From Pseudovirgaria hyperparasitica (taxonomy: Eukaryota), in assembly GCA_010093815.1 (NCBI GenBank), contig ML996568.1: a stretch of DNA of 64,000 nucleotides. One strand, 5' to 3'. Below are positions 3,201 to 35,860 of the stretch, piece by piece (positions within the stretch are counted from its first letter, which is position 1; every line of letters starts with the position of its first letter). Under the pieces are notes generated by a model. That model was not told where the DNA came from, did not search any database, and saw only the letters and a list, made by a program, of their open reading frames with translations. Made by a program: the position numbers and the translations under genes.

Positions 3201-5559
3201 CTCTTCTAGAACCCGTAGACCTATTAGATATTAACGGTACGGAATACCTAGAAGCTATAAGTATCCCTAGGGAAATCACGGACGACGATATACTCGGTAC
3301 TATTAAGATACTCCCGAATAATAAAGCGCCCGGGCTAGATAGAATTCCGAATCAATACCTTAAGAGGACTATATAGGCGACCTTACCGATTATAGGCTAT
3401 ATATTCCGAGCGTGCGCCCGTATAGGATACTACCTATAGAGCTTCTAAACTATATATATGGTTATACTCCTAAAACTAGGGAAGAGTCTAAACACGCTAA
3501 AGGGATAGAGGCCGATCGCCCTCCTCTTCTATCTAGATAAGGTACTAGAAGCTATAATTACTAAGAAGATAAGTATAGTAGTATAGGTATACGGCCTTCT
3601 CCTAGTAAACCAGAAGGCGAAGGTAGAAAGCTCCCTAATCATAGCTATTTAACATATCCTTAAGGTTATCTAGACTATATAGAAATAAGGACGAGTCGTC
3701 ACGCTACTCTCCCTAGACATAGTAGGGGCGTTTAATAAGGTAAACTATATAAGACTTATCTATAACCTCCGGATGAGGCGAATACCTAAGTAGATTATAC
3801 GATTTATATAGTCCTTCCTCGCGTAAAGGACTACTTAAATATATATTCCCGGATACTAAAGCGAATATAAGGAGACGGTATACAGCATCCCGTAAGGGAG
3901 TACTATCTCCCCAATCCTCTTCCTCTTCTTTATAGTAGACCTCCTTTAGAGAATAGAATATATAGAGGTAGTCGGATATACGGACGATATATACCTCCTC
4001 GCGGTCGATAGTAGTACTAGTAGAATATATATACGACTCGAACGAGACCACGAGAAATACGTCTAGTAGGTAAAGCGCTATAGAGTAAAATTCGCACCTA
4101 AAAAATACTAGCTTATATACTTTATTAACCGCTATAGAGGATAGGCTACTAGGAAGGGGGTATGTCGCCCCTAAATCGACGCCTTTATAGAACTACTAGT
4201 ATAGAGTATACGTATACTTAGCGTCATGATTAATAATAAGCTAAAATAGGGACCATAGGTAGTACACGCCGTCTCTAGAGCCCTCTAGATAGAAACTACT
4301 ATATACCGGATTATAGTATCCACGTAGGGAGTAGCCCGGGATAAGGCGAGATAGCTATACGTCTCCCTAGTACGCCTAGCCTTTATATATAGACACGAGT
4401 ACTAGTATACGGCCCTTATATAAGCTCGGCGGGTAAAGCTTAAGTCTATATAAAACTATATACTCCGCCTTATCTCCGGTATATATAAAGCTACTAATAT
4501 AACGCTCCTCCGACGCGAGATAAACGTAATAAGTATATAGGACTTCTACTAGATATAGAGACTTATATACTTTACTAAATAATAAGTATAAGAACGTAGA
4601 GAAGATAGGGTATATACCTTCGCCGTACTACGTACATGTATCCACGCGTATTACTAGGCCCTCTCTACTATAGAATAAACTTAAGTATAATATAAATACT
4701 ATATAGAGGCGGACTCGAGCTAGACTATATAGGAGGTTCAAAATAACCCGGATACTATCCTAAGCTAATAGAGCCCTAAGGAGCTTAGCCGCGTTATACG
4801 GTCGTAGATCTAGAATAAATAGAGGGAGGTACTTAAAGCCTAGTAGGCCTCCTAATAGAATAGGTATCTAGAATAGATCCGAGGGCCTTAGAAGGAACTA
4901 AGTAAATAGATATATAAAGGGCTAATAAAGGCCTAAGCATCTATACTCCTCTAAGCCCGAATAGGCGCTATAGATCTTCTATATTACCTCTACTAGAGAG
5001 GCGTCCTAGATATATCTCTCTAGTATGAGGACTACGGCCGGAGAGGTATAATATACTACTACCTCGCGACGTGCTCTAGCCTCTATACCCTAAGACAAGC
5101 CCTCATCCGTATAACGAGGACCTCTAATATTACGTAATAGCTTAATAAGTACCCTAAGAACGTCGCCCGATAGATGCTCGTATACCTTCCTCTCCCCTAG
5201 TTCTAGTAGACCCGCGTATATATACTAGAAGAAGCCCGATATATGCCGGAAGAACCCCGGTATACGTTAGAAGAACCCCGGGAGAACCGCGATTATTAGT
5301 TAAGGGTAGCCCTTAACTAATAATCTCCGTACCTATACGTGCTACCTAAGGGTAAACTATTATAATATAGGCTATAGGCCTATAGATAGCCTCTAGGGCT
5401 ATATATATATAAAGAACGAGAGGATAGATAGAGCGTAGTCATAGATATAAGGGAGTTTTTCCTATTCGTAGGTTTCTTCTTATATAGTAGCTTAGACTAG
5501 AGAAGGTATGCGCCTATAGAGTGGTACTCTACCTAGTTTACTAATATTATTATTATTAT
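267..5559 (+). mobile_element. Full-length Tad1-like non-LTR retrotransposon (LINE copy A), RIP-inactivated
   Basis: ORF1 relic with zinc knuckles (~1535-1730). ORF2 relic with endonuclease LGDFNL (~2381), RT motifs KAPGLD (~3323), RPIALL (~3508), P*GSTISP (~3889) and GYTDD (~3974). (TTA)n tail at ~5545-5560. 14-bp TSD TATAGATAAATATA at 253-266 and 5560-5573. Confidence 0.93.
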
Positions 5560-5623
5560 TATAGATAAATATAAAGCTAGATAGATAGCTAAAGGGTTTC
5601 TTTAAAAATATAATATTAATTAT
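5560..5623 (+). mobile_element. Continuation of the Copia RT, left between two LINE insertions
   Basis: Translates DKYKAR*IAKGFL*KYNINY, matching the Copia KYKARxVAKGFxQxYGxDY motif. It starts with the duplicated TATAGATAAATATA also at 253-266. Confidence 0.88.
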
Positions 5624-8600
5624 AATAATAATAATAATATTATATAACTAGGTAGAGTAGTACTCTATAGGCCTATGCCTCCTCTAGTCTAAGCTACTAT
5701 ATAAGAAGAAACCCCATAGGGAAAAACTTCCTTATATCTATAACTATATCTCGTGGAACCTCTATTTCGTCTTAAGTATATAGCTATAGAGTACGCCTAT
5801 TAGCCTATAGCCTATATTACCGTTATTTTACCCTTAGGTAGCACGTATAGGTACGGAGGTTATTAGTTAAGGGCTACCCTCGACTAATAATCGGGGTTTA
5901 CCTAGGGTTCTTCCGGTATATATCGGGTTACTACTAGCGTATACTAGGTCTCTTCTAGTATATATTTCTAGGTCTACTAGTACTAGAGGAGTAGTAGATA
6001 TATAAGTATCTATTAGAAGATATCCTTAGGGTACTTATTAAGCTATCGTACGATATCTAAAGTCTTCGTAACGTAGATAAGCTATTACCGTTATATATAG
6101 AGGTTAGAGTATATAGCTAGATAGTAGCGTATTATACCTCTCCGGCCATACGCCTTATACCATAGAGAGGTATCAGAAACGCCTCTCTTATAGATATAGT
6201 ATAGAAGTTCTATGGCGCCCGTTTAGGCTTAGATAAGTATAGATACTTAGGCTTTCGTTAGCCCTTTATATATCTATTTACTTAGTTCCTTCTATAGCCC
6301 TCGAATCTACTCTAGATACCTATTCTACTAGAAGGTCTATTAGGTATAGAGTGCCTCTTTCTACTTATCTTAAGTCTATAACTATATATTTTTCACGAGT
6401 TCTTAAAGGCTCTACTAGTCTAGAAGAGCGTCTAGATTATCTCGGACTTCTTATACTACTTAGCTAGAGTCGGCTTCTATTAAGTACCTATACCGTATTT
6501 AATTCTAGCCTATATATAGAAGTGCGTAGTAATATATACTAATTCGTACACGTAGCGCGGTAAAAGTATATTCTACGTTTTCTATACGTTCCTATACTTA
6601 TTATTTAGTAAAGTATACTACCCTCCGTATCTAGTAGAAGTTATATATACTTATAACGTCTATCTCGCGTCGTAGTAGTACCGTGTTAGTAGCTTTATAT
6701 ACGCCTAATATAAGACGGAGTATACGGTTCTATATAGATTCGAGCTTTATTTACCTAGTCTATATAAGGGCCGTATACTAGCACTCGTGTCCGTACATAA
6801 AGGCGGGTCGTGCTATAGATATATATAGCTAGCGTACCTTATCCCGGGCGGTTCCCTACATAGAGACTATAATCTATTATATAGCGGCTTCTATCTAGAG
6901 GGCCCTAGAGACGGCGTATACCACTTATAGTCCCTATTTAAGCTTACTATCTAGTATGACTCCGAGCGCGCGTATACTTTATACTAGTAGTTTATTAAAT
7001 ACGTCGATTCGGGGGCGTCGTTTACCTTCTCTAGTTACCTATTTCCCTTAACGATTAATAAAGTACATGAGCTAGTATTTCTCCGGGGCGAACTTTACTC
7101 CGTAGCGTTTTATCTACTAGAGGCACCCCTTATAGTCCTATTCTAGTCGTCTATATGTTCGGTTAGTATTATTATTAATAGCTAGAATATATATATTATT
7201 AGCGTATCCGACTACCTCTATATACTTTATTTCTTAAAGAAGGTCTACTATAAAGAAGAGGAATAGAATCGGAGAGATAGTGCTCCCTTATAGGATACTA
7301 TATACTATCTCTTTATATTCGCTCTAGTACCTAGAGATATATATCTAAGTTATTCTTCCTATAAGGAATAACTATATAAAGCGTATAATCCATTCTAGTA
7401 TTCGTCTTATCTAGAGGTTATAAATAAGTCTTATATGGTTTACCTTATTAAACGCTCCGGCTATATCGAGAGAGAGGAGCGATACTACCCGTCCCTATTT
7501 CTATACGGCCTAGATAACTTTAATAATATATTAGATAGCTATTATTAGAGAGCTATCTATCTTTACCTTCTAGTTCGGAGGGAGGAGATTATATTCCTAT
7601 ACTATGGTACTTATCTTCTTTACTATCGTAGCCTCTAGTATCTTATCTAGGTAGAAGAGAAGGGCGATTAGTCTCTATCCCTTTAGGGAGTTAGGGCTCT
7701 TTCCTAGTTTTAGAAGTATAATAGTATAGGCGACTTAGAAGCTCTAGGGGTGGTACCCCTACGTGACGTATACTTAGAATATATAAGTAATAAGTAGTAG
7801 GGTTACTTTTATAGTACTTTTTAGGCATCGATTTAGAATTCCATCTAGTCTAGGTACTTTATTATTTAGAAGTATCTTAATAATATTAAGTATATCCTCC
7901 TCTGTAACTTCTTCGGGGATATCTACCGCGTATAGATATTCGGCGCCGTGAACGTCTAATAGGTCTACTAGTTCCGGGAGAGGGAACATGGCCTCCCGTA
8001 GAGCCTTAGTTTTCTTAAGGCTCGTAGAGTATATTCTCCCCTAATATATTAGGGGAGGTATAAGTGGCGGGGGTGTCGGAGTATCTACGCCCTTAGCCTA
8101 TTTTACTATACGCCATAGCTCTATTACGTATTATATCTATTAACTAGTAATTATACGCTACTATTTACGCCTTTTATTATAGAGGACTTTATTACGTTAT
8201 TATATCGCTTTCTTCTATTCTTTCTACGACTCGGGTATTCTTATATAGTATACGCGTGTATATAGCCTTCGGGCGTCTTATCTACTTTTCTATACTTAAG
8301 GAATTCTCTTTACTTCCGGGGGCTAGTATATTTAGTATAGTACGTGTTTATTTCTTATATTCTAGTATATTTATAGGAGTATCTATACGGCCTAGTCTAT
8401 GGCTAGGTCGTTAGATATATTAACTATAGAGGGATCTAGGATTACCGATTCTAGGTCCTTTAGGTACTTTTCCTAGTCGGTGTCCTTCTATATCTATTAT
8501 CCCCGTTATTTATTCGGGGTATATACGTTTATTACGGTTTCTATATATTTATAGTTAGAATCCGTCTATACCTAGCCTAGGCGGTAGTATTAGATCTAGT

Positions 8601-10091
8601 AACTAATATACTCCGTAGTAAAGGTAAGGTTAAGCGTGGACCCGTCTTTGTCCTATTTATGTTTTTTCTATATAACTTATTCTATAGGTATAAGTAGGTA
8701 TAGAAAGTCGTGGTAGCGGGTACGTAGTTCCCTTACTCTAAGTTCTTCTCTAACTATAGCTAGGCCTCCCTACTATTAGTAGTAGAGGTTAAAGTCTTCT
8801 AGGAGGATATGTTACCCTAGTTCCGTAGTACCCTCGAGCATCTCGTCTAGTATAAGTATATGTTATTAGTTATATATATTATATATATATAGGGGGCCTA
8901 TATCTATTTATAGGTATAGTATTATTCTAAGGTTATCGCGCTTAGTATACGACTATAATAAGAGTAGTATTAACCTATAAATATAGAAGAGGACTCGTCT
9001 TCCTAGTCCTAGAGGGTATATAGTATAGTATCCGGGGTATATAGTTGGTTTACTCGTCTAGTAGTATTTATAGGGTTCCTAGATAGTAAGTATTATAGCC
9101 CCGGTCTCTTCGAGGAGCGTCGCCTAGTTCTCTCTTTTATATTATATATTTACCTATATAATTCAGAGTATATTCTAGTCCCTTATTAGATACTAGGGAG
9201 TATATATATCTATATACTTATTCCTTAGAGGCGCGACTATCCTTACGCGGTAGCGGCTTTAACTATGCCTTTTAGTCGTCCTATCGTCTTCGGGATAGTC
9301 TACTATTCTACCTAATTATCTTCCGGAGGGGAGGTTAGGGGTATTATAAAGGAAGGGCCCGTAGTAGGTGTTATATTCTATAACTATCTTGCGTCTCTCG
9401 CTTTTATCATATAAATATATTCTATAACCTATTTATATTTTATACACGTTAACGACTACGACGGGTATTTCCTATCGTAGTTTAAATACTATACTATATC
9501 TCTATTTCTTAGTCTATCTCCTCGTGGTTCATAAGGGCACTCCTAGATAGCGTGGTCTCTACGGTACTATCCGCACTTAGTCTTCTATAAGTACCTTTAT
9601 ATAGTATGTCCATACCCTTAATAGTTAAAGTACTATATTATTATCTATACCCTATTCTATGGCTCGGCTATAAGGAGCTCTCCTTCTACTAGGAATCCCT
9701 TCTATATAATATATTATATAAGGGCGGGGTCTCGGAGCTCTATAATTATAGTAGAGTATTTTTTCGCCGTCGTCTTAATCGCCTATAGATTCTTCTACTA
9801 TACTTTTACGATCTTAATCCCTAGGTATTTTCGCGCGTTAGATTATTCTATATATATAATATCCCCTACTCCGATAGCCTATCCCCGTACGGGTACTACG
9901 TGTACTATAATCTAGTATATAGCTACTCTAATAGACGCGCCGGGGAAGATACTATCTATCGCGTTCGGATCTTACGAGATGTTTTACTACGTAGTATTCG
10001 TTATGGTAGTAAGTACTACCCTACCTAGCGTAACTTTAGTAGCCACGACGCTCGACCACATTCCTTTCTATTTATTAATCTTATTTATAAT
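5624..10091 (-). mobile_element. Tad1-like LINE copy B (second subfamily), 5' end lost, RIP-inactivated
   Basis: Reverse-complement homolog of copy A with an (AAT)n tail at ~5624-5640. Nearly colinear with copy C (20520 onward). Ends inside ORF1 where an LTR begins at 10092. Confidence 0.92.
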
Positions 10092-10583
10092 TGTAAACTT
10101 AACCTCTACTATATCTAATAAGTTTATATAAGGTATTTCCTTATTAGGAATAGCTTAATATTAGTAATCGATATTACTAATATTATCTNNNNNNNNNNNN
10201 NNNNNNNNNNNNNNNNNNNNNNNNNNNNNNNNNNNNNNNNNNNNNNNNNNNNNNNNNNNNNNNNNNNNNNNNNNNNNNNNNNNNNNNNNNNNNNNNNNNN
10301 NNNNNNNNNNNNNNNNNNNNNNNNNNNNNNNNNNNNNNNNNNNNNNNNCTAGAATGTATAAGGAGGAATATATAAGGAACGGTCTCTCTATGTATTTAGT
10401 TCTCTCTCTATCTAGTCTTTACTTTAAGAATTATACTATATTCTTATTATCTTTAAGCTATACTCCGCCGATCCGTTTATTATATAATAGTCTATTACGG
10501 CTAGATTCTATTATATAACTCTATTTAGATATATATTCCTTATATAAGGAATATTATATATCTATTTATACCTGCCCTTTTTA
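10092..10583. mobile_element. LTR of a family distinct from the adjacent Gypsy, spanning an N gap
   Basis: Both sides of the gap (10092-10188 and 10349-10583) are reverse complements of the two ends of the element at 35052-35623. Termini are TG...CA-type (TGTAAAC / CCCTTTTTA after RIP). Confidence 0.8.
10189..10348. other. Assembly gap (N run)
   Basis: Run of N. Confidence 1.
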
Positions 10584-13500
10584 TAACCTTTACTATATAG
10601 CCTAATCTATAGAGATACCTTCTCTATTCCTTAAGGTATTTAATAATAGTATAGAGTTCTTTTTTATAGATTAGCTAGTTTATTTCTAACCCTTAGAATT
10701 TTTAGGAGTAAAATACTATAGAGTATCTTTTCCCTTATTTATCTATCTAGGTTAACTACCCTCTAATAGTAAATTCTAATATATCTATCTTAACTTCGTA
10801 GAGTTTTTCTATTTAGTATATCTTTAATACGGGTTTAGTTATAATAGACTCTTTTAACTATTAAAATACTTATTCTTACTTTAGTTTCTATTTAAATATT
10901 ATATTTTTCTTTATAAGCTTATATAGTAGGGCCGTTTTTATAGAATAGTTATATATAAATTTTCTATAAAAGTTCGTGAATCTAGTAAATCCTTAGATTT
11001 CCTTAACTATCTTAGGTTACTTCTAGTTTTTAATAGCCTTAATTTTCTTTAGGTCTATTTATATTTCTCTAGATATAATCTTAAATTCTAAAAATATAAC
11101 TTTCTATATATAGAAGATACTCTTCTTTAACTCTACTAGTAGATTTACTATCTATAATTTCTAAAGTACCTTATATACGTGTTCTCTATACTCCGATAGA
11201 TTTCTTAAATAAATTAATATATTATCTAGGTAGACTATTATAAAGTAGTCGAGGTATTCTCTTAGTATATTATTAATTAGTACTTAGAATATAGCTAGTA
11301 TATTAGTTAGTCTAAATAGTATTACTAGATATTTATAGTAGCCGTATTAAGTCTAAAAAGCTATTTTCTATTTATCTCCTTCTACTATATATACGAGGTT
11401 ATAGACTTCTTATAAGTCTATTATAGTAAAGTACTAAGCTTCCACGAGTTAGTTCTATAATTTATTAATTTAGAGTAAAGGATATCTATTTTTAATAGTA
11501 ATATTATTTAAGTATTAATAGTCTATATAGGGTCGTTCGCTCCTATCCTTTTTTAGTATAAAGAGTATTAGATATTCTATAGGTGATTTAGAGAGTTAGA
11601 TATATCTCTTTACTTCTATTTTCTTAATATATTATCGCGTTATCTCTAGTTATTTTTTAGTAAGTTAGTATATACTTTTAAATATAGGTACTATTCTAGA
11701 TTAGAGTATTATTATATAATTATATAGGCTATACTTTAGTAATTCTATCTTAAGTTCTTCTTTAAAGATAATATAGTATTAGTAGTATTCCTTTAGTACG
11801 AGTGCGTTATTTATTTTTTAAATCTATTTATCTATAGACGTGCCTTATTATACTATATATTTCTTACGTAAGGGTCTACTCTTTATATTACCTTACTTAT
11901 TATTAAGCTTCTAAATATAGTAGATAGACTTTCTAGTTATTAGCGCCTTTATAGATTTATTAATCTCTACTTCTTCTTTAATAGTTTCTAAGGGTCTTAA
12001 TATTCTCTAGGGTATAATTTCCTTAGTTTTCTAGTTAATTATAGGGTTAACTTCTTTAAGCTATAGTATTCCTAGAATTAAGTTATATTATCCTAGTTCC
12101 GCTATATCTAGTTATAATTATTAGTATTCTACTATTAAGACTAAATCTAGAGGTTCTATTTCTAAGTATACTATCCCGTTAGTATATTCTATATTAAGTT
12201 CTTTAAACGTGGATAGCTTATATAGTTCTTCTTTACTATTATAGGGTATTTTTAGTTTATCTACTATAGTTAGAGAGATAAAATTAGACTATACTCTACT
12301 ATTAATTAGTACCTTAATAGAGTATTTTTAATAGAGCTAAATTTTAAGAGATATTTGTATTTCGTCGTCTAAGCTACTAATAGATATAAGAGATTTTTTT
12401 TAGCTTAGCTATTTCTCTTAGTATATCTAGCCTTCCTAGTTTTTTCGTAGCTTACTAAGTTCTTATTCTGTTTCTTATATAAGTTAGATTATAGATTAAA
12501 CTTATTTCTTAATTTCGCCTAAGTCTACTTAAAGATTATACTATATAATAGCCTTAGATATTAAATAAGTTTAGCACGTAACGTCTAGACATTAGATATA
12601 TTAGTTCTCCGGGTAAATTTTATTTTCTATCTATTTTAATATAAAGTAGTTTTTATTAGCTTCCTTAGTAATTATTTTATACTATTATATATCTTCGTCT
12701 CTAAAGGCTTTTAGAATTACTTAGTTTTAATACTATTATAGAAACTATTTCTAGGTTCGCTTCTTATAGAGATAGCGAAGATAATTATTATAGATATAAG
12801 TAATCTAGAAAGTCTTACCGTGTTCCTTATGATAGGGTGAAATAAGTTAGTTATCTTCTAATTAGATTTCCGCGCCTCTTCTAGATAGATCTCTATTATT
12901 CTTATCTATATACTTTCTATAGTAATAGATAATATAGTAAGTAATAGGGTCTTATATTATTATTAACTTATTATATAGTTCCTCTATAGTAAGGGTTTCT
13001 TCCTTACTATTCTCTTCTATAGTACTTTCTTTAATTATTACTTCTTTAGATACTATTTCTTTAGTTAGTTTAGATCTTCTTATTACTTCTAAGTATTTCT
13101 ATAGTTCTACTTTTTTATAAAGCGATAGGGGTTATTTACTAGCTATTAAGGCGTTTCTTTTCTTTAGATACTAATCTATACTATCTTTCTCTAACTTATA
13201 TATAAAATAGAGGTTATTAGTATAACTAGTCTATAATATAGCTACGTAAGGTACTTCTTCCTTTTCTATAGTAAAGTTCCCTTATCTTAGTACCGGGTCT
13301 TTAATCTAATTTTTCTTATTCTTATTTTTCGGGTATTTACGTGCGTAGTATCCCTTTTCCTTATAGTAGAGATACTTATCTTTCTTCTTTAGTTACTTCT
13401 TTTCTTTATTAGATAGATATTTTATCTATAAGGCGCTAAGTTCTATAGATACGGGTCCGTTATAGAATCTCTTATATAAGTAGTTTAGGGCTTTATTAAT

Positions 13501-14046
13501 ATAGCTCTTTCTTATATCTTATTTAAGTATAGATTAAAAGACCTTCTTCCCTCTTTTCTCGTAGCGTCTCTTATATAGTTAGTTATTAATCTAGACTATA
13601 AGCTTAATATACTTCTAGAGGTTAGTAGAATAGTCTCTCTCTCTAGAAATTTTATCCTTAATATTATTATATAATCTAGTATAGAACTAGAGGATTAGGG
13701 GTTTATCGTTCTATCCTAGCTAACTAGAGATTTATTAGAATTTAGAGGCGTAGTTAGATATAGATTTTATCTAGACTATCTACTAGATTTATCTCTCGGC
13801 TATCCTTTATTTATCTATATCTCTAAAGGTTATTTTAATATATTCCTTAAATTCTTTAAAACGTTTAAAGATCTTAGTAGTATTATTCTATTAATTCTAC
13901 GGATTATTTTCTATAAAGTCCCTTAAGTAAGACTCGAACCACGTAAGTACGTCTCCCTTTAGTAGTCTAGTAGTAAATATAACTTATTCTTCTAGGTTCT
14001 AAATTTAATAGGCCTAAAGATATATTCTAATCTATATTAGAAATCC

Positions 14047-14371
14047 NNNNNNNNNNNNNNNNNNNNNNNNNNNNNNNNNNNNNNNNNNNNNNNNNNNNNN
14101 NNNNNNNNNNNNNNNNNNNNNNNNNNNNNNNNNNNNNNNNNNNNNNNNNNNNNNNNNNNNNNNNNNNNNNNNNNNNNNNNNNNNNNNNNNNNNNNNNNNN
14201 NNNNNNNNNNNNNNNNNNNNNNNNNNNNNNNNNNNNNNNNNNNNNNNNNNNNNNNNNNNNNNNNNNNNNNNNNNNNNNNNNNNNNNNNNNNNNNNNNNNN
14301 NNNNNNNNNNNNNNNNNNNNNNNNNNNNNNNNNNNNNNNNNNNNNNNNNNNNNNNNNNNNNNNNNNNNNNN
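14047..14371. other. Assembly gap (N run) with duplicated flanks
   Basis: Run of N. The ~87 bp before the gap are repeated directly after it. Confidence 1.
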
Positions 14372-14715
14372 TAGTAGTCTAGTAGTAAATATAACTTATT
14401 CTTCTAGGTTCTAAATTTAATAGGCCTAAAGATATATTCTAATCTATATTAGAAATCCTTAGAGTTCGCTTTACTTACCTTTAAAAGGTTCCGGGATTTT
14501 TCTTTTAAAGCCCTCTTTAGCTTTTCTAAGTTTAATATTTTCTCTCTAGAGCTCCGTAACTTACTCCCCTAGTTTAATAATAAGATATCTAACTTACTCT
14601 ATAGTTAGTACTTATAGGGCGGTTTATAAAGATAAGGATTATCTATTATTTACTATTTTATATTTAAATAGATAGTATAAATACTTATTTTAGAGTCTAA
14701 GTAGAGTAATTAAAC

Positions 14716-15244
14716 TATAATAAACCTTCCTAGATAAGGATATAGTCTATCCCTTAAGTAGTCTATTATATAGAGTATTCCGGCTTTCCTTAAGGTAAAG
14801 GTACTTAGAAGGCTTAGAGGAGTATAAGTAGGTTTATAGTAAGTATTAATAGAGTATAAATAGTAACTAGCTAGTAGGCGAGTAAAGTAGTAATTATATT
14901 AGTATAAGTTTAAATTAATTACTATAGAACTATCTCTAGAGGTCGGGTCTAAAGAGTCTATATAGTTCTACTAAGGTCCTCTAATTAGAATACTTATTCT
15001 AAGTATTTAGTATATTACTTAGAATACCGATATTCTATTCCTAATTACTATATAGGTTACTTAGAATATCTATTCTAAGTATCTATAATTAGTTCTTTCT
15101 ATAGATGTCTATCTCGGCCTTAGGTTACTATCTAAGGCTATCTATCGTATTATAGGTACCTCTTCTACATGCTATGCTACCTCTTATACTACTTATACTA
15201 GAGTCTACGTATCCTTCTATGGCTCTAGCTAGTAATTTATTATA
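14716..15244 (-). repeat. 5' LTR of Gypsy copy 1 (~529 bp)
   Basis: Bounded by the inverted termini TATAATAAA...TTTATTATA (RIP-mutated TG...CA) and homologous over its length to 19073-19601. Confidence 0.82.
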
Positions 15245-15774
15245 ATTTACTTCTATCTTTCTTTAGTATAAAGAGTATTAGATATTCTATAGGTAATTTA
15301 GATAGTTAGATATATTCTTTTACTTCTATTTTCTAAACTATTATTATGTTATTTCTAGTTATTTTTTAGTAAGTTAATATATACTTTTAAATATATATAA
15401 TATTCCTAGTTAGAGTATTATTATATAATTATATAGACTACGCTTTAGTAGTTCCGTCTTAAGTTCTTCTTTAAAGATAATATAATATTAGTAATATTTC
15501 TTTAGTATAAGTATATTATTTATTTTTTAAATCTATTTATCCGTAGGCGTACTTTATTATACTATATACTTCTTGAATAAGGGTCCGCTCTCTATATTAT
15601 CTTACTTATTATTAAGCTTCCGAATATAGTAGATAGACTTCCTAGTTATTAGTATCTTTATAGATTTATTAATCTCTAATTCTTCTTTAATAGTTTCTAA
15701 GGGTCTTAATATTTCCTAGGGTATAATTTCCTTAGTTTTCTAGTTAATTATAGGGTTAACTTCTTTAAGCTATA

Positions 15775-15784
15775 NNNNNNNNNN
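15775..15784. other. Assembly gap (N run) with duplicated flanks
   Basis: Run of N. The ~95 bp before the gap are repeated directly after it. Confidence 1.
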
Positions 15785-16929
15785 TTCTTCTTTAATAGTT
15801 TCTAAGGGTCTTAATATTTCCTAGGGTATAATTTCCTTAGTTTTCTAGTTAATTATAGGGTTAACTTCTTTAAGCTATAGTATTTCTAGAATTAAGTTAT
15901 ATTATTCTAGCTCTACTATATCTAATTATAGTTATTAGTATTCTACTATTAAGACTAAATCTAAAGGTTCTATTTCTAAGTATACTATTCTATTAGTATA
16001 TTCTATATTAAGTCCTTTAAATATAGATAGTTTATATAGTTCTTCTTTACTATTATAGGGTATTTTTAGTTTATCTACTATAGTTAGAGAGATAAAGTTA
16101 GACTATACTCCGCTATTAATTAGTACTTTAATAGAGTATTTTTAATAGAGCTAAATTTTAAGAGATATCTATATTTTATCATCTAAGCTACTAATAGATA
16201 TAAGAGATTTTCTTTTTAGCTTAGCCGTTTCTCTTAGTATATCCGGCCTTTCTAGTTTTTTTATAGCTTACTAAGTTCTTATTTTATTTCCTATATAAGT
16301 TAGATTATAGATTAAACTTATTTCTTAATTTTACCTAAGTCTACTTAAAGGTTATACTATATAATAGCCTTAGATATTAGATAGGTCTAGTATATAATAT
16401 CTAGATATTAGATATATTAGTTCTCTAGATAAGTCTTATTTTCTATCTATTTTAATATAAAGTAGTTTTTATTAGCTTCCTTAGTAATTATTTTATACTA
16501 CTATATATCTTTATCTTTAAAGGCTTTTAGAATCGCTTAATTCTAGTACTATTATAGAAACTATTTCTAGGTTTACTTTTTATAGAGGTATTAAAGATAG
16601 TTATTATAGAGATAGATAATCTAGAAGGTCTTATTATATCCCTCGTGGTAGAGTAAGATAAGCTAGTTATCTTCTAGTTAAATCTCTATATCTCTTAAAG
16701 ATAGATCTCTATTATTCTTACTTATATATTTTCTATAGTAATAGATAATATAGTAAGTACTAGGGTCTTAGTCTATTACTAACTTATTATATAGTTCTTC
16801 TATAGTAAGGGTTTCTTCCTTACTATCTTCCTCTATAGTACTTTCTTTAATTATTACTTCTTTAGATACTATTTCTTTAGTTAGTTTAGATCTTCTTATT
16901 ATATCTAAGTATTTCTATAGTTCTATTTT

Positions 16930-17868
16930 AGCTAGGTGGCGTAGTAGTAGTATACTACGTTACTAGAAGCGTTTGTTATCTAACGTCGTGGGTTTAAATC
17001 CTATAACGGCTACCTTTTTATACACTAGTTTTCGCACGCTCTATTAAAAAGTATATAGGGCTAAGCGAGCACGTGACGTGAAGGTTACCGTTATATAACT
17101 ACTTAGTCCTAAGCGATCATTAGGTAATATGAAAATAACTATACCGTTATTACATGATAAGAATTACCTAATATAGCCACCTACTAAGCTACCTTAAGTG
17201 GTAGAGCGACGCCTAGAGCGGCTAGACCTATAACTAGCTTAGCTCGAATCATAGAATTTTTACTATATACCGGGGCCTTATCTACCCTAATCCGGCTTAG
17301 CTCGCGCTTACTCCGGCTCGGTAACTATAAAATAGATAGTAATACCTAATTAAGTATCCCGCCCACCTATAGACGATTATATAGCCCCGAAGAATAATTT
17401 CCGAATTCGGCCTAGCTAGGGTTAGTACTAAGGCATGGACCTATTAGATATATACCCCCTCCGGTATTAGTTATCTTAATTAATAACTACTACCCAGCGT
17501 AAAGCTATATTCCTATAGATAGGAAAAAACACGGTAACATAGGAATAAAAGACTAGGCCTAGCCTAGCGACCTACCTAATCATAAGAAAGGTAATACCTA
17601 CTATAGTTAGTTAGGGCGTTATTAAGAGCCGGTACTAATATAGTAATAAAAGCCTAATATAAGGATAAGAAGTAAGTTTATCACCCAATGGGATTCGAGG
17701 ACTTAGACTAGGCTAGGTTAGATTAGTAATAGGGTCTAGTTAGGGAGCCAATCATAGGAGGTTTTCTTATATATATAGCAGCTAATACTAGAGGAGGCCT
17801 GAGCCTATGGAGCATATATATGGCTATATATATAGTTCTTCCTAGTTAAACACTAATATTATTATTAT
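16930..17868 (+). mobile_element. tRNA-derived SINE-like element with a LINE-related 3' tail
   Basis: Absent from the equivalent site in Gypsy copy 1 (~13100-13115). 14-bp TSD TATAGTTCTATTTT at 16916-16929 and 17869-17882. Head has RIP-mutated A box TGGCGTAGTAG and B box GGTTTAAATCC. The last ~110 bp resemble the LINE 3' end and finish in (TTA)n. Confidence 0.85.
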
Positions 17869-19072
17869 TATAGTTCTATTTTTTATAGAGTAATAGAGGT
17901 TATTTACTAGCTATTAAAATATTTCTTTTCTTTAGATACTAATCTATACTACCTTTTTTTAACTTATATATAAAGTAGAGGTTATTAGTATAACTAGTCT
18001 ATAATATAGCTATATAAGGTACTTCTTCTTTTTCTATAGTAAAGTTTCCTTATCTTAGTACCGGGTCCTTAATCTAATTTTTCTTATTTTTATTTTTCAA
18101 GTATTTATAGGTATAGTATCTCTTTTCCTTATAGTAGAGATACTTACCTTCCTTCTTTAGTTACTCCCTTTCTTTATTAGATAGATATTTTATCTATAAG
18201 GTACTAAGTTCTATTAGTATAGGTCTATTATAGAATTCCTTATATAGATAGTTTAGAGCCTTATTAATATAGCCCTTCCTAGTATCTTATTTAAGTATAG
18301 ATTAAAAGATCTTTTCTCTTCTTTTCTTATAGTATCTCTTATATAGTTAGTTATTAATCTAGACTATAAGCTTAATATACTCTTAGAGGTTAGTAGAATA
18401 GTCTCTCTCTCTAGAGATTTTATTCTTAATATTATTATATAGTCCGGTATAGAACTAGAGAATTAGAGGTTTATTATTCTATTCTAACTAACTAGAGATT
18501 TATTAGAATTTAGAGGTATAGTTAGATATAGATTTTATCTAGACTATTTACTAGATCTATCTCTTAGCTATTCTTTACTTATCTATATCTCTAAAGGTTA
18601 TCTTAATATATTCCTTAAATTCTTTAAAATATTTAAAGACCTTAGTAGTATTATTCTATTAATTCTATAGATTATTTTCTATAAAGTCCCTTAAGTAGAG
18701 TTTAAACTAAGTAAGTATATCTCCCTTTAGTAGTCTAGTAGTAAATATAACTTATTCTTCTAGGTCCTAAATTTAATAGACCTAAAGATACATTCTAATC
18801 TATATTAGAAATCCTTAGAGTTCACTTTACTTATCTTTAAAAGATTCTAGGATTTTTCTTTTAAAGCCTTCCTTAGCTTTTCTAAGTTTAATATTTTCCC
18901 TCTAGAGCTCTATAACTTACTTCTCTAATTCTATAATAAGATATCTAACTTATTCTATAGTTAGAGCTTATAGAGTGGTTTATAAAGATAAGGACTATCT
19001 ATTATTTACTATTTTTATATTTAAATAGATAGTATAAATACTTACTTTAGAGTCTAAGATAAGTAATTAAAC

Positions 19073-19601
19073 TATAATAAACCTTCTCTAGTAAGGACGT
19101 AGCTTATCCCTAAAGTAGTCCGTTATATAGAGTATTCTAGCTTTTCTAAAGATAAAGATACTTAGAAAACTTAGAAGAGTATAAGTAGGTTTATAGTAAG
19201 TATTAATAGAGTATAAATAGTAACTAGCTAGTAGACGAGTAAAGTAGTAATTATATTAGTATAAGTTTAAATTAATTACTATAGAACTATCTCTAGAGGT
19301 TAGGTTTAAAGGGTCTATATAGTTCTACTAAGGTTCTTTACTTAGAATACTTATTCTAAGTATCTAGTATATTACTTAGAATACTAATATTCTATTTCTA
19401 ATTACTTAGTATACTATTTAGAATATCTATTCTAAGCGTCTATAATTAGCTCTCTCTATAGTTACCTATCTTAGCTTTAGATTATTATCTAAGGCTACCT
19501 ATAGTATTATAGATACCCCTTCTATATATTATACTATCTCTTATACTACTTATACTAGAGTCTATATATCCTTCTATAGTCGTAACTAGTAATTTATTAT
19601 A
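19073..19601 (-). repeat. 5' LTR of Gypsy copy 2 (~529 bp)
   Basis: Homologous to 14716-15244, with the same inverted termini. Confidence 0.82.
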
Positions 19602-19849: not shown

Positions 19850-22800
19850 TCTAATCTCCTTAACTTTAGTAATCTCTCTACTATCTCTATCTTATCTAAA
19901 CTTATCTAAATCTACTATAACTCTCTATTAGAGCGTCTTATTAATATAATACCTATCTATAGCGTGTTTAAAGAAGCGTAGAGTCTACTAATTAGTATAA
20001 CTATAGATAGTTAAGAAAGTCTTTAAAGGTTTAAGATTACTAATATATCTAAGTATACTATCTATAAATCTACGCCTTTATTACTATCTATATAAGCTTA
20101 ATAGAGTTAAAGTTAGAAGAGTATAGTAGTATATATTATATAATATAGCTAGTACTAAGGATAAGTAGCTTAATTTATTAGTTTATATAAAGGGCGAGAT
20201 TATCTATAATAATTATTATTATATACCTAGGGTATTTTGCCTTAAGGGTAGATAGTAAGTATATCTCTTACTAAGTATAGAACTCTTCTACTAAGAAGTA
20301 ACCTTTCTTTATCTAATAGTAGATAAATCTATTAACTATAATAGTACTATAGGTACTATATATTAGTCCTTAATTAAGTATACTAAACTTAGTTAGAGTC
20401 TATCTCTTTAGTACTCTATCTCGATATCTCTATCTAATTTTCTTATTAAATATAACCTTATCTAAGAATATATAAGAGTCTACTAGTAGCTCTATAATAT
20501 TCTTAAGATATAAAGTATAATAATAATAATAATAATATTATATAACTAGATAGAGTAGTACTCTACAGGCCTATGCCTCCTCTAGTCTAAGCTACTATAT
20601 AAGAAGAAACCCTATAGGGAAAAACTTCCTTATATCTATAACTATATCTTATTAAACCTTTATTTCGTCTTAAGTATATAGCTATAGGGTACGCCTATTA
20701 GCCTATAGCCTATATTACCGTTATTTTACCCTTAGATAGCACGTATAGGTGCGGAGGTTATTAGTTAAGGGCTACCCTTAACTAATAATCGGGGTTCTCC
20801 TAGGGTTCTTCCGGTATATATCGGGTTACTACCGGTATATACCGGGTCTCTTCCGGCATATATTTCCGGGTCTACTAGTACTAGAGGAGTAGTAGATATA
20901 TAAGTATCTATCGGGAGACGTCCTTAGAGTACTTATTAAGCTATTATACGATATCTAAAGTCTTCGTGACGTAGATAAGCTATTACTATTATATATAGAG
21001 GTTAGGGTATATAGCTAGATAGTAGCGTATTATACCTCTCCGGCCGCACGCCTTATACTATAGAGACACGTCGGGAACGCCTCTCTTATAGAGATAGTAT
21101 AGGAGTCCTATAGCGCCCATTCGGGCTTAGATAAGTATAGATACTTAGGCTTTCGTTAGCCCTTTATATATCTATTTACTCGGTTCCTTCTATGGCCCTC
21201 GAATCTACTCTAGGTACCTATTCTACTAGGAGGTCTAGTAGGTACGGAGTGCCTCTTTCTACTTATCTTAAGTCTACAACCATATATTTTTCACGAGTTC
21301 TTAAAGGCTCTACTAGTCTAGAAGAGCGTCCGGGTTATCTCGGACTTCTTATACTACTTAGCTAGAGTCGGCTTCTATTAAGTACCTATACTATATTCGA
21401 TTCCGGCCTATATATAGGAGTGCGCGGTAATATATACTAATTCGTGCACGTAGCGCGGCGAAAGTATATTCTACGTTTTCTATGCGTTCCTATACTTATT
21501 ATTTAGTAAAGTATACTACCCTCTATATCTAGTAGAAGTTATATATACTTATGACGCCTATCTCGCGTCGTAGTAGTACCGTGTTAGTAGCTTTATATAC
21601 GCCTAATATAAGACGGAGTATACGGTTCTATATAGATTCGAGCTTTATTCGCCTAGTCTATATAAGGGCCGTATACTAGTACTCGTGTCCGTATATAAAG
21701 GCGGGTCGTACTATAGATATATATAGCTAGTATACCTTATCCCGGGCGGTTCCCTACGTAGAGGCTATAATCTATTATATAGCGGCTTCTACCTAGAGGG
21801 CCCTAGAGACGGCGTATACCACTTATGGTCCCTATTTAAGCTTACTATCTAGTATAACTCCGAGCGCGCGTATACTTTATACTAGTAGTTTATTAAATGC
21901 GTCGATTTAGGGGCGTCGTTCGCCTTCCCTAGTTACCCATTCCCCTTAATAATTAATAAAGTACATAAGCTAGTATTTCTCTAGAGCGAACTTTACTCTA
22001 TGGCGTTTTACCTACTAGAGGTACCTCTCATAGTTCTATTCTAGTCTTCTATATATTCGGTTAGTATTATTATTAATAGCTAGGAGGTATGTATTATCGG
22101 CGTATCCGACTATCTCTATATACTTTATTTCTTAAAGAAGGTCTACTATAAAGAAGAGGAATAGGATTAGAGAGATAGTGCTCCCTTATAGGATGCTATA
22201 TACCGTCTCTTTATATTCGCTCTAGTATCTAGGGATATATATCTAAGTTATTCTTTCTATAAGGAATAACTATATAAAGCGTGTAATCTATTCTAGTATT
22301 CGTCTTATCCGGAGGTTATAAATAAGTCTTATATAGTTTACCTTATTAAACGCTCCGGCCATATCGAGGGAGAGAAGCGATACCACCCGTCCCTACTTCC
22401 ATGCGGCCTAGATAACTTTAATAATATATTAGATAGCTATTATTAGGGAGCTATCTATCTTTACCTTCTAGTTCGGAGGGAGAAGATTATATTTCTATAC
22501 CGCGGTACTTATCTTCTTTACTATTATAGCCTCTAGTATCTTATCTAGATAGAAGAGAAGGGTAATTAGTCTCTATCCCTTTAGGGAGTTAGAGCTCTTT
22601 TCTAGTTTCGGGAGTATAATAGTATAGGCGACTTAGAAGTACTAGGGGTGGTACCCCTACGTGACGCATGCTTAGAATATACGAGTAATAAGCGGTAGAG
22701 TCGCCTTTATAGTTCTTTTTAGGCATCGATTTAGAATTCCATCTAGTCCGAGTACTTTATCATTTAGAAGTGTCTTAATAATATTAAGTATATCCTCCTC

Positions 22801-25800
22801 CGTAACTTCTTCGGGGATATCTACCGTATATAGGTATTTAGCGTCGTAAACGTCTAATAGGTCTACTAGTTCCGGGAGAGGGAATATGGCCTCCCGTAGG
22901 GCCTTAGTTTTCTTAAGGCTTATAGAGTATATTCTCCTCTAATATATTAGGGGAGGTATAAGTGGCGGGGGAGTCGGAGTATCTACGCCCTTAGCCCATT
23001 TCGCCATGCGCTATAGCCCTATTACGTATCGTGTCTATTAACTAGTAATTATACGCTACTATTTACGCCTTTCGTTACGGAGAACTTTATCGCGTTATTA
23101 TATTACTTCCTTCTATTCTTCTTACGACTCGGGTATTCTCGTACGGTATACACGTCTATATAGCCTTCGGGCGTCTTATCTACTTTCCTATACTTAAGGA
23201 ATCCCCTTTACTTCTAGGGGCCGGTATATTCGGTATAGTACGTATTTATTTCTCGTATTCTAGTATATTTATAGGAGTATCTATACGGCCTAGTCTATAG
23301 CTAGGTTATTAGATATATCGACTATAGAGAGATCTAGGATCGCCGATTCCAGGTCCTTTAGGTACTTTTCCTAGTTAGTATCCTTCTATATCTATTATCC
23401 CCGTTATTTATTCGGGGTATACACGTTTATTATAGTTTCTATATATTTATAGTCGGAATCTATCTATACCTAGCCTAGGCGGTAGTATTAGATCCGGTAA
23501 CTAATATACTCCGTAGCGAAGGTAAGGTTAAGCGTAGACCCGTCTTTATTCTATTTATGTTTTTTCTATATAACTTATCCTATAGGTGTAAGTAGATATA
23601 GAAAGTCGTGGTAGCGGGTACGTAGTTCCCTCGCTCTAAGTTCTTCCCTAACTATGGCTAGGCCTCCCTACTATTAGTAGTAGAGGTTAAAGTCTTCTAG
23701 GAGGATGTGTTACTCTAGTTCCGTGGTACCCTCGAGCATCTCGTCTAGTATAAGTATACGTTATTAGTTATATATATTATATATATATAGGGGGCCTATA
23801 TCTATTTATAGGTGTAGTATTATCCTAAGGTTATCGCGCTCGGTATATAACTATAATAAGAGTAGTATTAACCTATGAATATAGAAGAGGACTCATCTTT
23901 CTAGTCCTAGAGGGTGTATAGTATAGTATCCGGGGTGTATGGTTGGTTTACTCGTCTAGTAGTATTTATAGGGTTCCTAGATAGTAAGTATTATAGCCCC
24001 GGTCTCTTTAAGGAGCGTTACCTAGTTCTCTCTTTTATATTATATATTTATCTATATAATTCGGAGTATATTCTAGTCCCTCATTAGATACTAGGGAGTA
24101 TATATATCTATATACTTATTCCTTAGAGGCGCGACTATCCTCACGCGGTAGCGGCTTTAACTATACCTTTTAGTCGTCCTATTATCTTCGGGATAATCTA
24201 CTATTCTACCTAACTACCTTCCGGAGGGGAGGTTAGGGGTGTTATAAAGAAAGGGCCCGAGGTAGGTATTATATTCTATAACTATCTCGTGTCTCTCGCT
24301 TTTATCGTACGAATGTATTCTATAACCTATTTACGTTTTATATATATTAACGACTATAACGGGTGTTTCCCGTCGTAGTTTAAACACTATACTATGTCTC
24401 TATTTCTTAGCCTATCTCCTCGCGGTTTATAAGGGTACTTCTAGATAGCGTGGTCCCTACGGTACTATCCGCACTTAGTCTTCTATAAGTACCTTTATAT
24501 AGTATATCTATACCCTTAGTAGTTAAAGCACTATATTATTATCTATACTCTATTCTATGGCTCGGCTATAAGGAGCTCTCCTTCTACTAGGAATCTCTTC
24601 TATATAATATATTATATAAGGGCGGGGTCTTGGAGCTCTATAATTATAGTAGAGTGTTTTTTCGCCGTCGTCTTAATCGCCTATAGGTTCTTCTACCACG
24701 CTTTTATAATCTTAATCCCTAGGTATTTTCGCGTGTTAGATTATTCTATACGCGTAATATCCTCTACTCCGATAGCCTATCCCCGTATAGATACTAAGTA
24801 TATCTATATCGGGTATATGGCCGCCCTAATAGAGGCGCCTAGGAAGATACTACTAATCGCGTTTAGATCGCGCGAGATAGTCTACTACGCGATATTTATT
24901 ATCGTGGTAAGTACTACTCCTCCTAGCGTGAGTTTAGCGGTAATAATATTTAACTATATTCCCTTTTATTTATTAATCTTACTTACTATGTCCTTTAGGG
25001 ATGCTCGCTAGACCTATACTAGGGTATCCTTATCCTAGATTACGACGTGTATACTATACGCTACGTCGCCGGTCCGGGAGGCCCGTAGTATAGCTTCTAG
25101 TATTACTACTATTTATACCTATATACTAGGGCGCTTACCTTAAGTAAGTTCCTCCTAGATTCTACGTAGGCTAGCCTCTATTTAGTCGAGCCTACCCTCC
25201 GGTCCTCCTAGTTATATCTTCTTCTCCTCCTCTATAATTCCCTTTAGGTTCTAGATAAGGTTCTAGAATATATATAGGAGGGTCTTCTAGCCCTCTCCGG
25301 CTTCCTTCTCTATATATACTATCTAGTAGTTAATATAATCTAGGAGGGTTTCCCCTCTTAGGGTCCCCTTTATTCCGTCTATCTATAGCGGCGTGCGCCT
25401 TTAGGTGTATTCTATGTTTTAGATAGGTGTATAGCTACCCTCGGTAATATTACTATATAGCCTTTTCTATTATACTAGTAGGGGTATATCCGGTATATAC
25501 TAGGGTATATCGGTGCCTAAGGCCGCCATATTTATTAGTTAAGGGCTACCCTTAACTAATAAAAGGGGGTTAGTATATCGGTATTCTAGTAGTGTAGTCC
25601 GTGCCTCTATCTCTATAAGGATTTTAAGAGGGTATATATATATCTTTACACGGCGATAACGTCTTAGTTTCGACGCTGCACGTACGTGCGTGTGGTAGTA
25701 GTTAGTGTACTCGGTATACTCTATCGATTAAGGTATGTATCTCTTTCTAACCCGTATAGAGTTTGTTAGTTTTCAACTAACTCGAGTAAAATATAAGATA

Positions 25801-26300
25801 TAAAGTATATACTATCTCTAAGCGCGTACTACTAATATATTTTAATAGCTTATAATTCTAATCTTACTTAGATAACTCCTTTAATAGAAGCTATTTAGAT
25901 ATAGTAAGGTTAAACTCTTTATATATCTATCTAGCTATCTTATTAAGGAATAGCTAGCTCTTATAAAGTAGTCTCTTAAGTATTTATTATATTATATAAT
26001 TACTTAGTTATTACGGTAGGCCACGGCGCGCTAGTTATAGTTTATTCCTCTATCTATATATCTTAAGATTATATCTTATTCTATAGATAGTAGTCTTACT
26101 AACTTTAGTAATAGTAATAATCTTATTAATAGATATATTATATTATAAGAGAAAGTTAATTTAACTATATATAGAGGTAGAATAAATAGTACTATAGAGT
26201 ACTATATATATATATAAGTAAGTCTAAAATACTATATATTAACTATACTAACTTCTATATATAATATAATATAGTTATAGAGGCTATATAAGTATAGTAT
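19850..26300 (-). mobile_element. Tc1/mariner-IS630 (DDE_3) transposase relic interrupted by LINE copy C; boundaries approximate
   Basis: Minus strand reads FLDKVIFNKK (~20440-20469), IIDNLAL (~20190-20210) and YILLYSSNFNSIKL (~20094-20135), which are RIP versions of FLDE..FNEK, MDN...H and YLPPYSPDFNPIEL. The host sequence resumes after 25809. Confidence 0.75.
20520..25793 (-). mobile_element. Full-length Tad1-like LINE copy C, RIP-inactivated
   Basis: (AAT)n tail at ~20520-20540. Homologous to copies A and B. 16-bp TSD TAAGATATAAAGTATA at 20504-20519 and 25794-25809. Confidence 0.93.
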
Positions 26301-34935: not shown

Positions 34936-35860
34936 CTAAATATAGTATTTTATATTCTATATACTAATATTATTATTTAGATATTCTATCTATAAGATAG
35001 TAGACTCTACGTACTAACTATCTATACTAAAAGAATCGAATCTTAAAGCTATGAAAAGGGCAGGTATAAATAGATATATAATATTCCTTATATAAGGAAT
35101 ATATATCTAAATAGAGTTATATAATAGGATCTAGCCGTAATAGACTACTATTATATAATAAACGGATTAGTAGAGTATAGCTTAAAGATAATAAGAATAT
35201 AGTATAATTCTTAAAGTAAAGACTAGATAGAGAGAGAACTAAATATATAGAGAGACCGTTCCTTATATATTCCTCCTTATATATTCTAGATCCTTCTCTC
35301 AATTAATAATAGGAATCTTCTAGACCTCTAGACATACATATACATTCTATAGCTCTAGTAGTTTCCTTAGAATAGAATAGAGTAGAGTAGAACTCTATAG
35401 AACTTATAGACTCTATAGTAGAATCTAATAGAACTCTATAGAAGTTTATATTTCTAAAGACCTTTAGAAGTTTCTAGAGGGTTCTAGAAACTTCTATAAG
35501 AGTATAGAGTATTTATATATATAAGTAGATAATATTAGTAATATTAATTACTAATATTAAGCTATTTCTAATAAGGAAATACCTTATAGAAACTTATTAG
35601 ATATAGTAGAGGTTAAGTTTATAAAAGCTACTACTTTAAGGGTAGAGTATACTACTTATATACGACTACTATATACATATAGAATTAACTAGTAGACTAC
35701 GTATCTAATACTATCTCTCTATCTTAGAGTCTATATATTATAACTCTTATAGAAGAATAAATATATATCTAATTTTCTATATTAAAGTTAATACTATTAA
35801 TTACTAAGGTCTATATGTAAAAGTAGGAAGAGCTCTACATAGAAAGATAGGAGTGAGAAT
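34936..35860. repeat. Small RIP-mutated island between the mannosidase and eIF5B genes
   Basis: AT/TpA-rich. Flanks are homologous to 26780-26910. Contains a solo LTR. Confidence 0.9.
35052..35623. mobile_element. Solo LTR (~572 bp) with target-site duplication
   Basis: Starts TGAAAAGGG and ends GTTTATA (GTTTACA in the copy at 10092). AAAGCTA is duplicated at 35045-35051 and 35624-35630. The uninterrupted site is visible at 26831-26844. Confidence 0.85.

Follow-up and report, generated by a model that had tools for sequence, protein, structure and literature searches.

We have identified, in a 64-kb window of contig ML996568.1 of the dothideomycete fungus Pseudovirgaria hyperparasitica, a 939-bp insertion (16930-17868) that is probably a tRNA-related, non-coding short interspersed nuclear element (SINE) with internal A and B boxes, whose RNA was captured via its tail by a neighbouring long interspersed nuclear element (LINE) ending in (TTA)n and inserted by target-primed reverse transcription (TPRT). 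By window we mean the whole stretch of DNA analysed, and all coordinates are positions in it. The observations behind this reading are the insertion itself, a family of related copies, their alteration by repeat-induced point mutation (RIP), the homology of the element's tail to LINE tails and matching target-site duplications (TSDs). Fungal SINEs with an identifiable LINE partner are few, the documented cases in the accounts available being Mg-SINE/MGL and AfuSINE2-1a/I-1_AF. In the present case, a single window contains the SINE together with three copies of its likely partner, and three independent links are open to direct inspection: homology of the tails, a common microsatellite end, and TSDs that agree in length and first bases.

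The element was retroposed as one discrete unit, which is flanked by a TSD and missing from the paralogous site. Its boundaries are perfect, identical 14-bp repeats, TATAGTTCTATTTT, at 16916-16929 and 17869-17882 (both on the plus strand), the second running into a T-rich flank with a T6 at 17879-17884. Its host is a heavily RIP-mutated Ty3/Gypsy-type copy (15250-19601, minus strand), recognized by self-comparison, RIP index and Pfam domains, and the element lies antisense to the pol gene of that copy. A second, paralogous long terminal repeat (LTR) retrotransposon copy (11540-15244) is 89-90% identical to the host in the self-comparison of the window, where 11971-13113 pairs with 15785-16929 and 13094-14046 with 17863-18814. 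The alignment is thus interrupted at 13113/16929 and restarts at 13094/17863, which are the boundaries of the element, and the sister copy carries a single empty target site, TATAGTTCTACTTT, at 13100-13113 (plus strand). The original prediction of a ~940-bp insertion with a 14-bp TSD, absent from the paralogous Gypsy site, is borne out by the alignment break and this single target, and the head and tail strings that it quoted are found at the positions given for them.

Empty sites were also seen in public data, for which Logan contigs of four public runs (X1-X4) were aligned to 16850-17950 at a likeness of at least 80%. Three joint rows (X1, X2) skip 952-961 bases (16923/16926/16929 to 17879/17891). 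A contig loose end behind 16929 corresponds to 13114-13140 and to 17882-17908 with zero purine/pyrimidine mismatches, and in the loose ends at 16929 and 17879 Gypsy sequence continues across the empty site. The Ty3/Gypsy assignment comes from a translation of the minus strand of 10349-14046, read through stops with stops as X, which matched RVT_1 (E = 2e-11), RT_RNaseH_2 (8e-13) and RT_RNaseH (5e-6). The two Gypsy copies stand in direct tandem at ~90% identity, with extreme RIP and a GC content of 0.19-0.28, in a block broken by N runs at 10189-10348, 14047-14371 and 15775-15784.

The boundaries also bear on one alternative, that the element is a solo LTR or a terminal-repeat retrotransposon in miniature (TRIM) with a tRNA-like sequence, of the Helenus type of non-autonomous LTR retrotransposon. 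Fungal Helenus LTRs do carry tRNA-like sequences whose folds are often poor, as described in PMC10886601. However, the element has no terminal direct or inverted repeats (no LTR or terminal inverted repeat), its 3′ end is a LINE tail plus (TTA)n, and its 14-bp TSD compares with 5 bp in fungal Helenus, which the same account reports from Pucciniales and a few Agaricomycetes (PMC10886601). We therefore give this alternative a negligible chance: membership in the Helenus/TRIM group, with its LTRs, 5-bp TSD, primer-binding site and polypurine tract, is ruled out by the 14-bp TSD, the lack of LTRs and the LINE tail.

The public contigs further indicate that the element is a member of a high-copy family whose copies differ almost only by RIP-type transitions. 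Contig pieces aligned to the 1,101-nt stretch, Gypsy flanks included, number 988 in X1, 462 in X2, two in X3 and one in X4. Summed word depth over the element bins of X1 is 9,600-47,000, and single listed contigs have a depth of ~180-520; depth, which is not copy number, suggests a family of tens to more than a hundred copies. One X3 contig (5,354 bp) and one X4 contig (3,131 bp) span 16934-17873, with 54 and 56 letters, respectively, differing from the window and six gaps. Among the variants tallied by kind of change, all are transitions, and these make up 51 of the 54 differing letters in X3. The data are contig summary tables, with 40 of 89 variant rows listed and 38 further loose ends beyond those listed. 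Among the variant rows listed, where the window has T and the others C, the next base is A in 22 of 23, and where the window has A and the others G, the preceding base is T in all 12. Thus, the variants carry the CpA-to-TpA signature of RIP.

Independent copies appear to have a common, fixed 5′ end. Upstream, the loose ends listed before 16934 are dissimilar, yet all terminate in GGCC: an X2 row of three contigs (agreement 0.66), one loose end in X3 and one in X4, the X3/X4 copy having a GC-rich 5′ flank. With at least three different 5′ flanks, this GGCC end coincides with the 5′ boundary that the TSD defines for the window copy. Thus, the first four letters of the element, AGCT in the window, were formerly GGCC. 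At the other end, the loose ends behind 17873 (X1, X3, X4) are mutually alike (AAGRRTAC.TA.AGAAGA...), and these 3′ flanks of other SINE/LINE copies match nothing in the window. Such copies may sit in one further repeat family or in a preferred target.

The mutational state of element and host indicates the order of events. The left 27 kb of the window is AT-rich with a RIP signature (TpA/ApT 1.6-1.8 versus 0.72 in genic DNA; (CpA+TpG)/(ApC+GpT) 0.02-0.33 versus 1.27 in the genic part), and the right half is genic with a GC content of about 0.45-0.52. Within the AT-rich part, the latter index is 0.33 in the element and 0.02-0.03 in its Gypsy flanks, and both TSD copies read T where the paralogous empty site has C. 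A tenfold difference in index, together with T in both TSD copies, points to insertion into an already RIP-mutated Gypsy. Thus, the element most likely entered a Gypsy copy that RIP had already altered, and was then mutated itself.

The link to LINEs lies in the tail. The window contains three LINEs that represent a single non-LTR retrotransposon, all riddled with stops and all with (TTA)n ends. LINE A (267-5559, plus strand), RIP-inactivated and with RVT_1 and Exo_endo_phos_2 domains, is a full-length insertion with an intact 14-bp TSD, TATAGATAAATATA, at 253-266 and 5560-5573. LINE B (5621-10087, minus strand) has RVT_1 and a 5′ part that runs into an N gap, and LINE C (20520-25793, minus strand), with RVT_1, is a full-length insertion with an intact 16-bp TSD, TATACTTTATATCTTA, at 25794-25809 and 20504-20519. 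LINEs A and B are in tail-to-tail orientation, and an AT-rich spacer of ~60 bp (5560-5620) separates their (TTA)n ends. The best three non-self matches of the whole element in the window are the 3′ ends of these three LINEs. Positions 17756-17852 (plus strand) of the element have ~80% identity to those ends, in an alignment that extends from GGTTT... up to the microsatellite and closes in the same (TTA)n (17853-17868, plus strand) as the three LINEs. Even with (TTA)n removed, the tail scores 48.2, 45.5 and 42.8 bits against the three LINE ends, and 200 dinucleotide shuffles give a mean of 28.0 bits (standard deviation 2.6, maximum 38.3). The element thus shares its 3′ end with a resident LINE, and the parallel first drawn for its 3′ ~110 bp holds, all three scores exceeding the shuffle maximum.

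The tail also has a history of its own. It carries an 18-nt insert relative to the LINEs (17813-17830, plus strand; tail-LINE alignments), and no contig without it occurs among the matches listed; an X3 LINE contig aligns only from 17837 on. On this evidence, the SINE tail is a lineage of its own and is not copied anew from LINE RNA at every insertion.

The TSDs provide the third link, with lengths of 14 bp in the SINE, 14 bp in LINE A and 16 bp in LINE C, and all begin with TATA. The SINE TSD starts TATAG, and the 3′ flanks of other copies in X1, X3 and X4 diverge from the window only after TATAG. A common tail, microsatellite, TSD length and first bases are what would be expected if one endonuclease/reverse-transcriptase machinery acted on both. 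This suggests a TATA-type nick-site preference of the (TTA)n-tailed LINE family. However, the TATA start is the weakest of the links, as TATA is common in RIP-mutated DNA. As to the LINE family itself, a Pfam search of LINE C at E ≤ 1 returned RVT_1 only, and a read-through LINE reverse transcriptase used as query retrieved four distant proteins at 22-25% identity, none naming a clade.

Behind the 5′ TSD, the first 83 nt of the element (16930-17012, plus strand) form a head that shows the A/B-box pattern in variant letters and is not called as a tRNA. The A-box consensus is TRGCNNAGTGG and the B-box consensus GGTTCGAATCC. The head has an A-box-like motif, TGGCGTAGTAG, at 16937-16947 (positions 8-18 of the element), which agrees with the former in 10 of 11 letters, a T arm at 16988-17004 (positions 59-75) and within it a B box at 16991-17001 (positions 62-72), followed by a 3′ acceptor-like strand (17005-17011) and a discriminator A (17012), all on the plus strand. 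The B box reads GGTTTAAATCC in the window and GGTTCGAATCC in less RIP-mutated copies, where C at 16995 and G at 16996 give the exact box. These copies also have C at both 17004 and 17011, so that the T stem and the acceptor end regain G-C pairs. Internal A and B boxes are therefore present, as far as comparison of the letters with consensus motifs can tell. The composite pattern TGGCNNAGTRG-N30-50-GGTTYRANNCC has a single match in the 64 kb and none in 100 shuffles. A scan of metagenome contigs with a RIP-tolerant B-box-to-acceptor pattern returned no loci. Folded, the head has a minimum free energy of -26.5 kcal/mol (z = -2.13), equalled by 4 of 200 shuffles. We suggest that the head is related to a tRNA in its putative promoter boxes and 3′ half, and is not a recognizable tRNA.

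A (GTA)4 run on the plus strand (16941-16952) occupies the place of the D loop of a tRNA. As a speculation, a RIP-changed D loop of the AGTGGTA type could have been expanded by slippage, which would yield the ~10 extra nucleotides of the head. An inverted repeat (17002-17016/17081-17095) was considered and dropped, as three of its pairs rest on RIP-changed letters (17004, 17092, 17094).

A likeness to initiator tRNA-Met, proposed in the original prediction after reversing RIP, does not hold, nor does a derivation from it. That tRNA is marked by an A1:U72 pair, a T loop with A54 and A60, and a 7-nt anticodon loop carrying CAU. Other copies have G at 16930 and C at 17011, and therefore G1:C72, so the A1:T72 initiator look of the window copy is a RIP artefact. 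Additionally, the T loop reads TTCGAAT, with T54 and not A54. CAT does appear in other copies (16977, T to C), but in an 8-nt loop in a hand fold. That RIP had altered the head was correct in principle, as the restored B box and GGCC start attest; the specific reconstruction fails, because other copies start GGCCAGG and not AGCCGGG, and no variant falls in 16934-16964 among the rows listed.

RIP also accounts for what looks like a Pol III (RNA polymerase III) terminator. The tRNA part is followed by CC and a T5 run (17013-17019, plus strand), and the element has two T5 runs in all, 17015-17019 and 17257-17261 (plus strand), the last T of both being followed by A. Other copies have C instead of T at 17019, and at 17261 most of them do so by depth. 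Thus, both runs were made by RIP from T4C, as had been suspected for the first of them. Four T4 runs would remain before RIP, and no run of T5 or longer. Termination by Pol III in ascomycetes takes about five or more Ts, and read-through to the T-rich flank with its T6 is plausible from these run lengths.

Several observations weigh against a tRNA-related SINE mobilized by these LINEs, most of them concerning the head. ARAGORN found no tRNA in the whole window, Rfam gave no tRNA match at E ≤ 10 in searches of 1,201 nt and 103 nt, and ARAGORN on the head with less-mutated letters called none at its default or 90% threshold. At the 80% threshold it returned a weak tRNA-Lys(ttt) at 16941-17011, in a different register. 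Thus, checking the head with tRNA finders, as had been proposed, yielded no cloverleaf and no call, even with less-mutated letters (ARAGORN default, Rfam E ≤ 10). By hand folding, the acceptor pairs in only four of seven positions even with those letters, the 5′ half of the head folds as a 12-bp hairpin around the (GTA)4 run, and there are two mutually exclusive anticodon-arm candidates, neither of them canonical. The A+B-box pattern was composed after the sequence had been seen. Moreover, a Pol III transcript of 939 nt would be a long one, and all three LINEs of the window are dead. The X3/X4 copy has no visible TSD in the 30 flanking letters listed per side. Summed contig depth over the head bins, again depth and not copy number, is ~2-3 times below that over the body, and many copies may thus be without the head. 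A common Y-shaped fold is predicted for the tails, with no compensatory pairs and z from -0.12 to +1.02, and we do not use it as support. A tRNA call is, however, not required for SINE status, as the heads of AfuSINE2 are described as not folding (PMC5063351).

One alternative is a different origin of the 5′ part. Under that account the element depends on a LINE for its retroposition and has no Pol III head: an abundant non-coding RNA was fused to a LINE 3′ end by template switching while the LINE was being reverse transcribed, like the WEIRD-MGL 'MINE' chimeras, either made repeatedly or made once and then copied, and the likeness to A and B boxes is incidental. Template-switch chimeras are known in fungi, with direct repeats of 10-20 bp (for example 14 bp) in the account of PMC2104539. 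A head that fails ARAGORN and Rfam, a body of no recognized origin and a head depth below the body depth all fit such an origin. However, the tail is ~20% diverged from all three LINE tails and has its own 18-nt insert, and as no insert-free contig is among the matches listed, recurrent fusion to contemporary LINE RNA is unlikely. Nor would chance be expected to supply an exact 11-nt B box, a paired T arm, an A-box-like motif, tRNA spacing and a fixed 5′ end together. We consider template switching an unlikely source of this family, if one to be kept in view.

The body (17020-17755, plus strand) is non-coding, with no stop-to-stop frame of more than 53 amino acids anywhere within the element. 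Neither an Rfam family match nor further similarity to other DNA of the window was found for it. In a BLAST of the element against the window in a purine/pyrimidine alphabet, everything was at background, the true tail match lying within the noise. For the ~730 bp of body first noted as unexplained, the one lead is 17445-17724 (plus strand), which has weak, transition-tolerant and unconfirmed similarity to the interior of LINEs B and C. The alignment with LINE B is collinear and lies at a distance of ~680-950 nt from the LINE 3′ end, with a score of 74 (100 shuffles: mean 42.5, maximum 56) over 291 columns, comprising 170 identities, 49 transitions, 42 transversions and 30 gaps. Against LINE C the score is 59 (shuffle maximum 58), and against the homologous region of LINE A it is 39, which is background (rank 11 of 49 windows). 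We regard this possible internal LINE similarity as a weak lead only.

If genuine, such similarity would favour an internally deleted, non-autonomous LINE derivative, with body and tail from a LINE and a 5′ end that is LINE-type or an unrelated promoter. The collinear match to LINE B above the shuffle maximum speaks for this, as does the X3/X4 copy, whose 5′ flank contains a 12-mer, CAAACTCTATAC, that is also present in the 5′ untranslated region (UTR) of LINE C (25754-25765, minus strand). However, the LINE C score is barely above its maximum and LINE A is at background, and the head against LINE 5′ ends scores 24-26 with a shuffle mean of 23, which is noise. Likewise, the 12-mer match with up to one mismatch arises in 40 of 100 shuffled windows, and ~515 bp of the body (17020-17444 and 17725-17755) have no LINE counterpart. 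Thus, we attach only a slight probability to a deleted LINE. By the window searches and tail alignments, the body is also not simply a 5′-truncated LINE 3′ UTR, one of the cases that had been named as refuting the original prediction. The recurrence of the 12-mer may reflect an X3/X4 SINE copy nested in a LINE 5′ UTR.

Returning to the reading of a tRNA-related SINE with a LINE partner, the following course of events would accommodate the observations. From internal A and B boxes, as their sequence suggests, Pol III would start at the tRNA-related head, pass the T4 runs, there having been no T5 before RIP, and terminate in T-rich flanking DNA. The open reading frame 2 (ORF2) protein of the LINE would then recognize in trans the common 3′ tail and (UUA)n of the SINE RNA. 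Its endonuclease would nick a TATA-type site, and TPRT, primed on the tail possibly through microhomology at TATA, would produce the 14-16-bp duplications. RIP later changed CpA to TpA throughout, which wrecked the B box and gave rise to the two T5 runs and the false A1:T72 look.

A more far-reaching reading takes several parts jointly, and we put it forward tentatively, as its joint truth is doubtful. It would make this the first documented SINE/LINE pair of a dothideomycete, of the 'stringent' kind, with a ~0.94-kb Pol III-type element; a 3′ module of ~100 nt, a (UUA)n tail and a TATA-initiated 14-16-bp signature would be common to SINE and LINE, and the SINE body would keep an internal LINE relic. 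If true, it would capture the birth of a SINE through a template jump of the LINE enzyme, from LINE RNA to a tRNA-like RNA, and would show that the family, in a RIP-proficient genome, went on amplifying to about a hundred copies when the Gypsy elements around it had already been destroyed.

These findings have practical implications for the annotation of SINEs in RIP-affected genomes, where tRNA finders fail. RIP can mislead in several ways at once: here, a perfect B box was erased, Pol III terminators were manufactured and the look of an initiator tRNA was created. The understanding of how SINEs work is unchanged by this element. As a separate observation on the same window, 10349-10585 and 35050-35289 form a 240-bp inverted repeat of 95% identity, with one arm at the margin of the AT-rich block and the other in an AT-rich island (35001-36000, GC 0.29) of the genic half. 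In that half, one open reading frame encodes a protein 100% identical to one named from P. hyperparasitica.

Judged by titles, no paper on a SINE in P. hyperparasitica was found, and a literature search for fungal non-LTR elements with TAA repeats returned no match. Two surveys of dothideomycete transposable elements mention SINEs, in the parts available, only in general terms. The element represents a new family within a class that is already known but has few documented members in fungi.

The closest parallel is Mg-SINE/MGL of Magnaporthe, which is likewise described as combining a tRNA-derived head, a non-coding body and a 3′ end that mimics the partner LINE (PMC2104539, PMC5063351). According to these accounts, Mg-SINE has ~100 copies and uses its LINE-like 3′ end to prime reverse transcription (PMC2104539, PMC5063351), and MGL-mediated insertions have direct repeats of 10-20 bp, for example 14 bp (PMC2104539). 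The length of Mg-SINE is 472 bp, and a cloverleaf fold is ascribed to it (PMC5063351). Compared by description, the element reported here differs in being 939 bp long and RIP-mutated, with no cloverleaf and a (TTA)n end. The Magnaporthe chimeras termed MINE/WEIRD-MGL similarly join a non-LINE RNA to the 3′ part of a LINE and have LINE-type direct repeats, and are attributed to template switching, with long LINE parts (PMC2104539). In contrast, the LINE-derived part here amounts to ~100 nt of diverged tail, which is distinguished by an 18-nt insert and preceded by a Pol III-type head.

AfuSINE2-1a/I-1_AF of Aspergillus fumigatus shares with our pair a 14-bp TSD and a SINE 3′ part that resembles a resident LINE's 3′ UTR, I-1_AF being assigned to the Tad/I clade (PMC5063351). 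AfuSINE2 is further described as having degenerate A and B boxes and heads without a cloverleaf fold, and a nearby LINE has 13-bp TSDs (PMC5063351). At 140-493 bp and low copy number by that account (PMC5063351), AfuSINE2 differs from the present element, which is twice as long and, by contig depth, has many copies. Length had been noted as unusual from the outset, and 939 bp is indeed long; it is not exceptional, as the fungal SINE-like elements EGH24 (900 bp), Egr1 (700 bp) and mgsr1 (800 bp) are on record (PMC5063351). By length alone, these three belong to the same 0.7-0.9-kb class as the element described here; they come from Leotiomycetes and Sordariomycetes, not Dothideomycetes.

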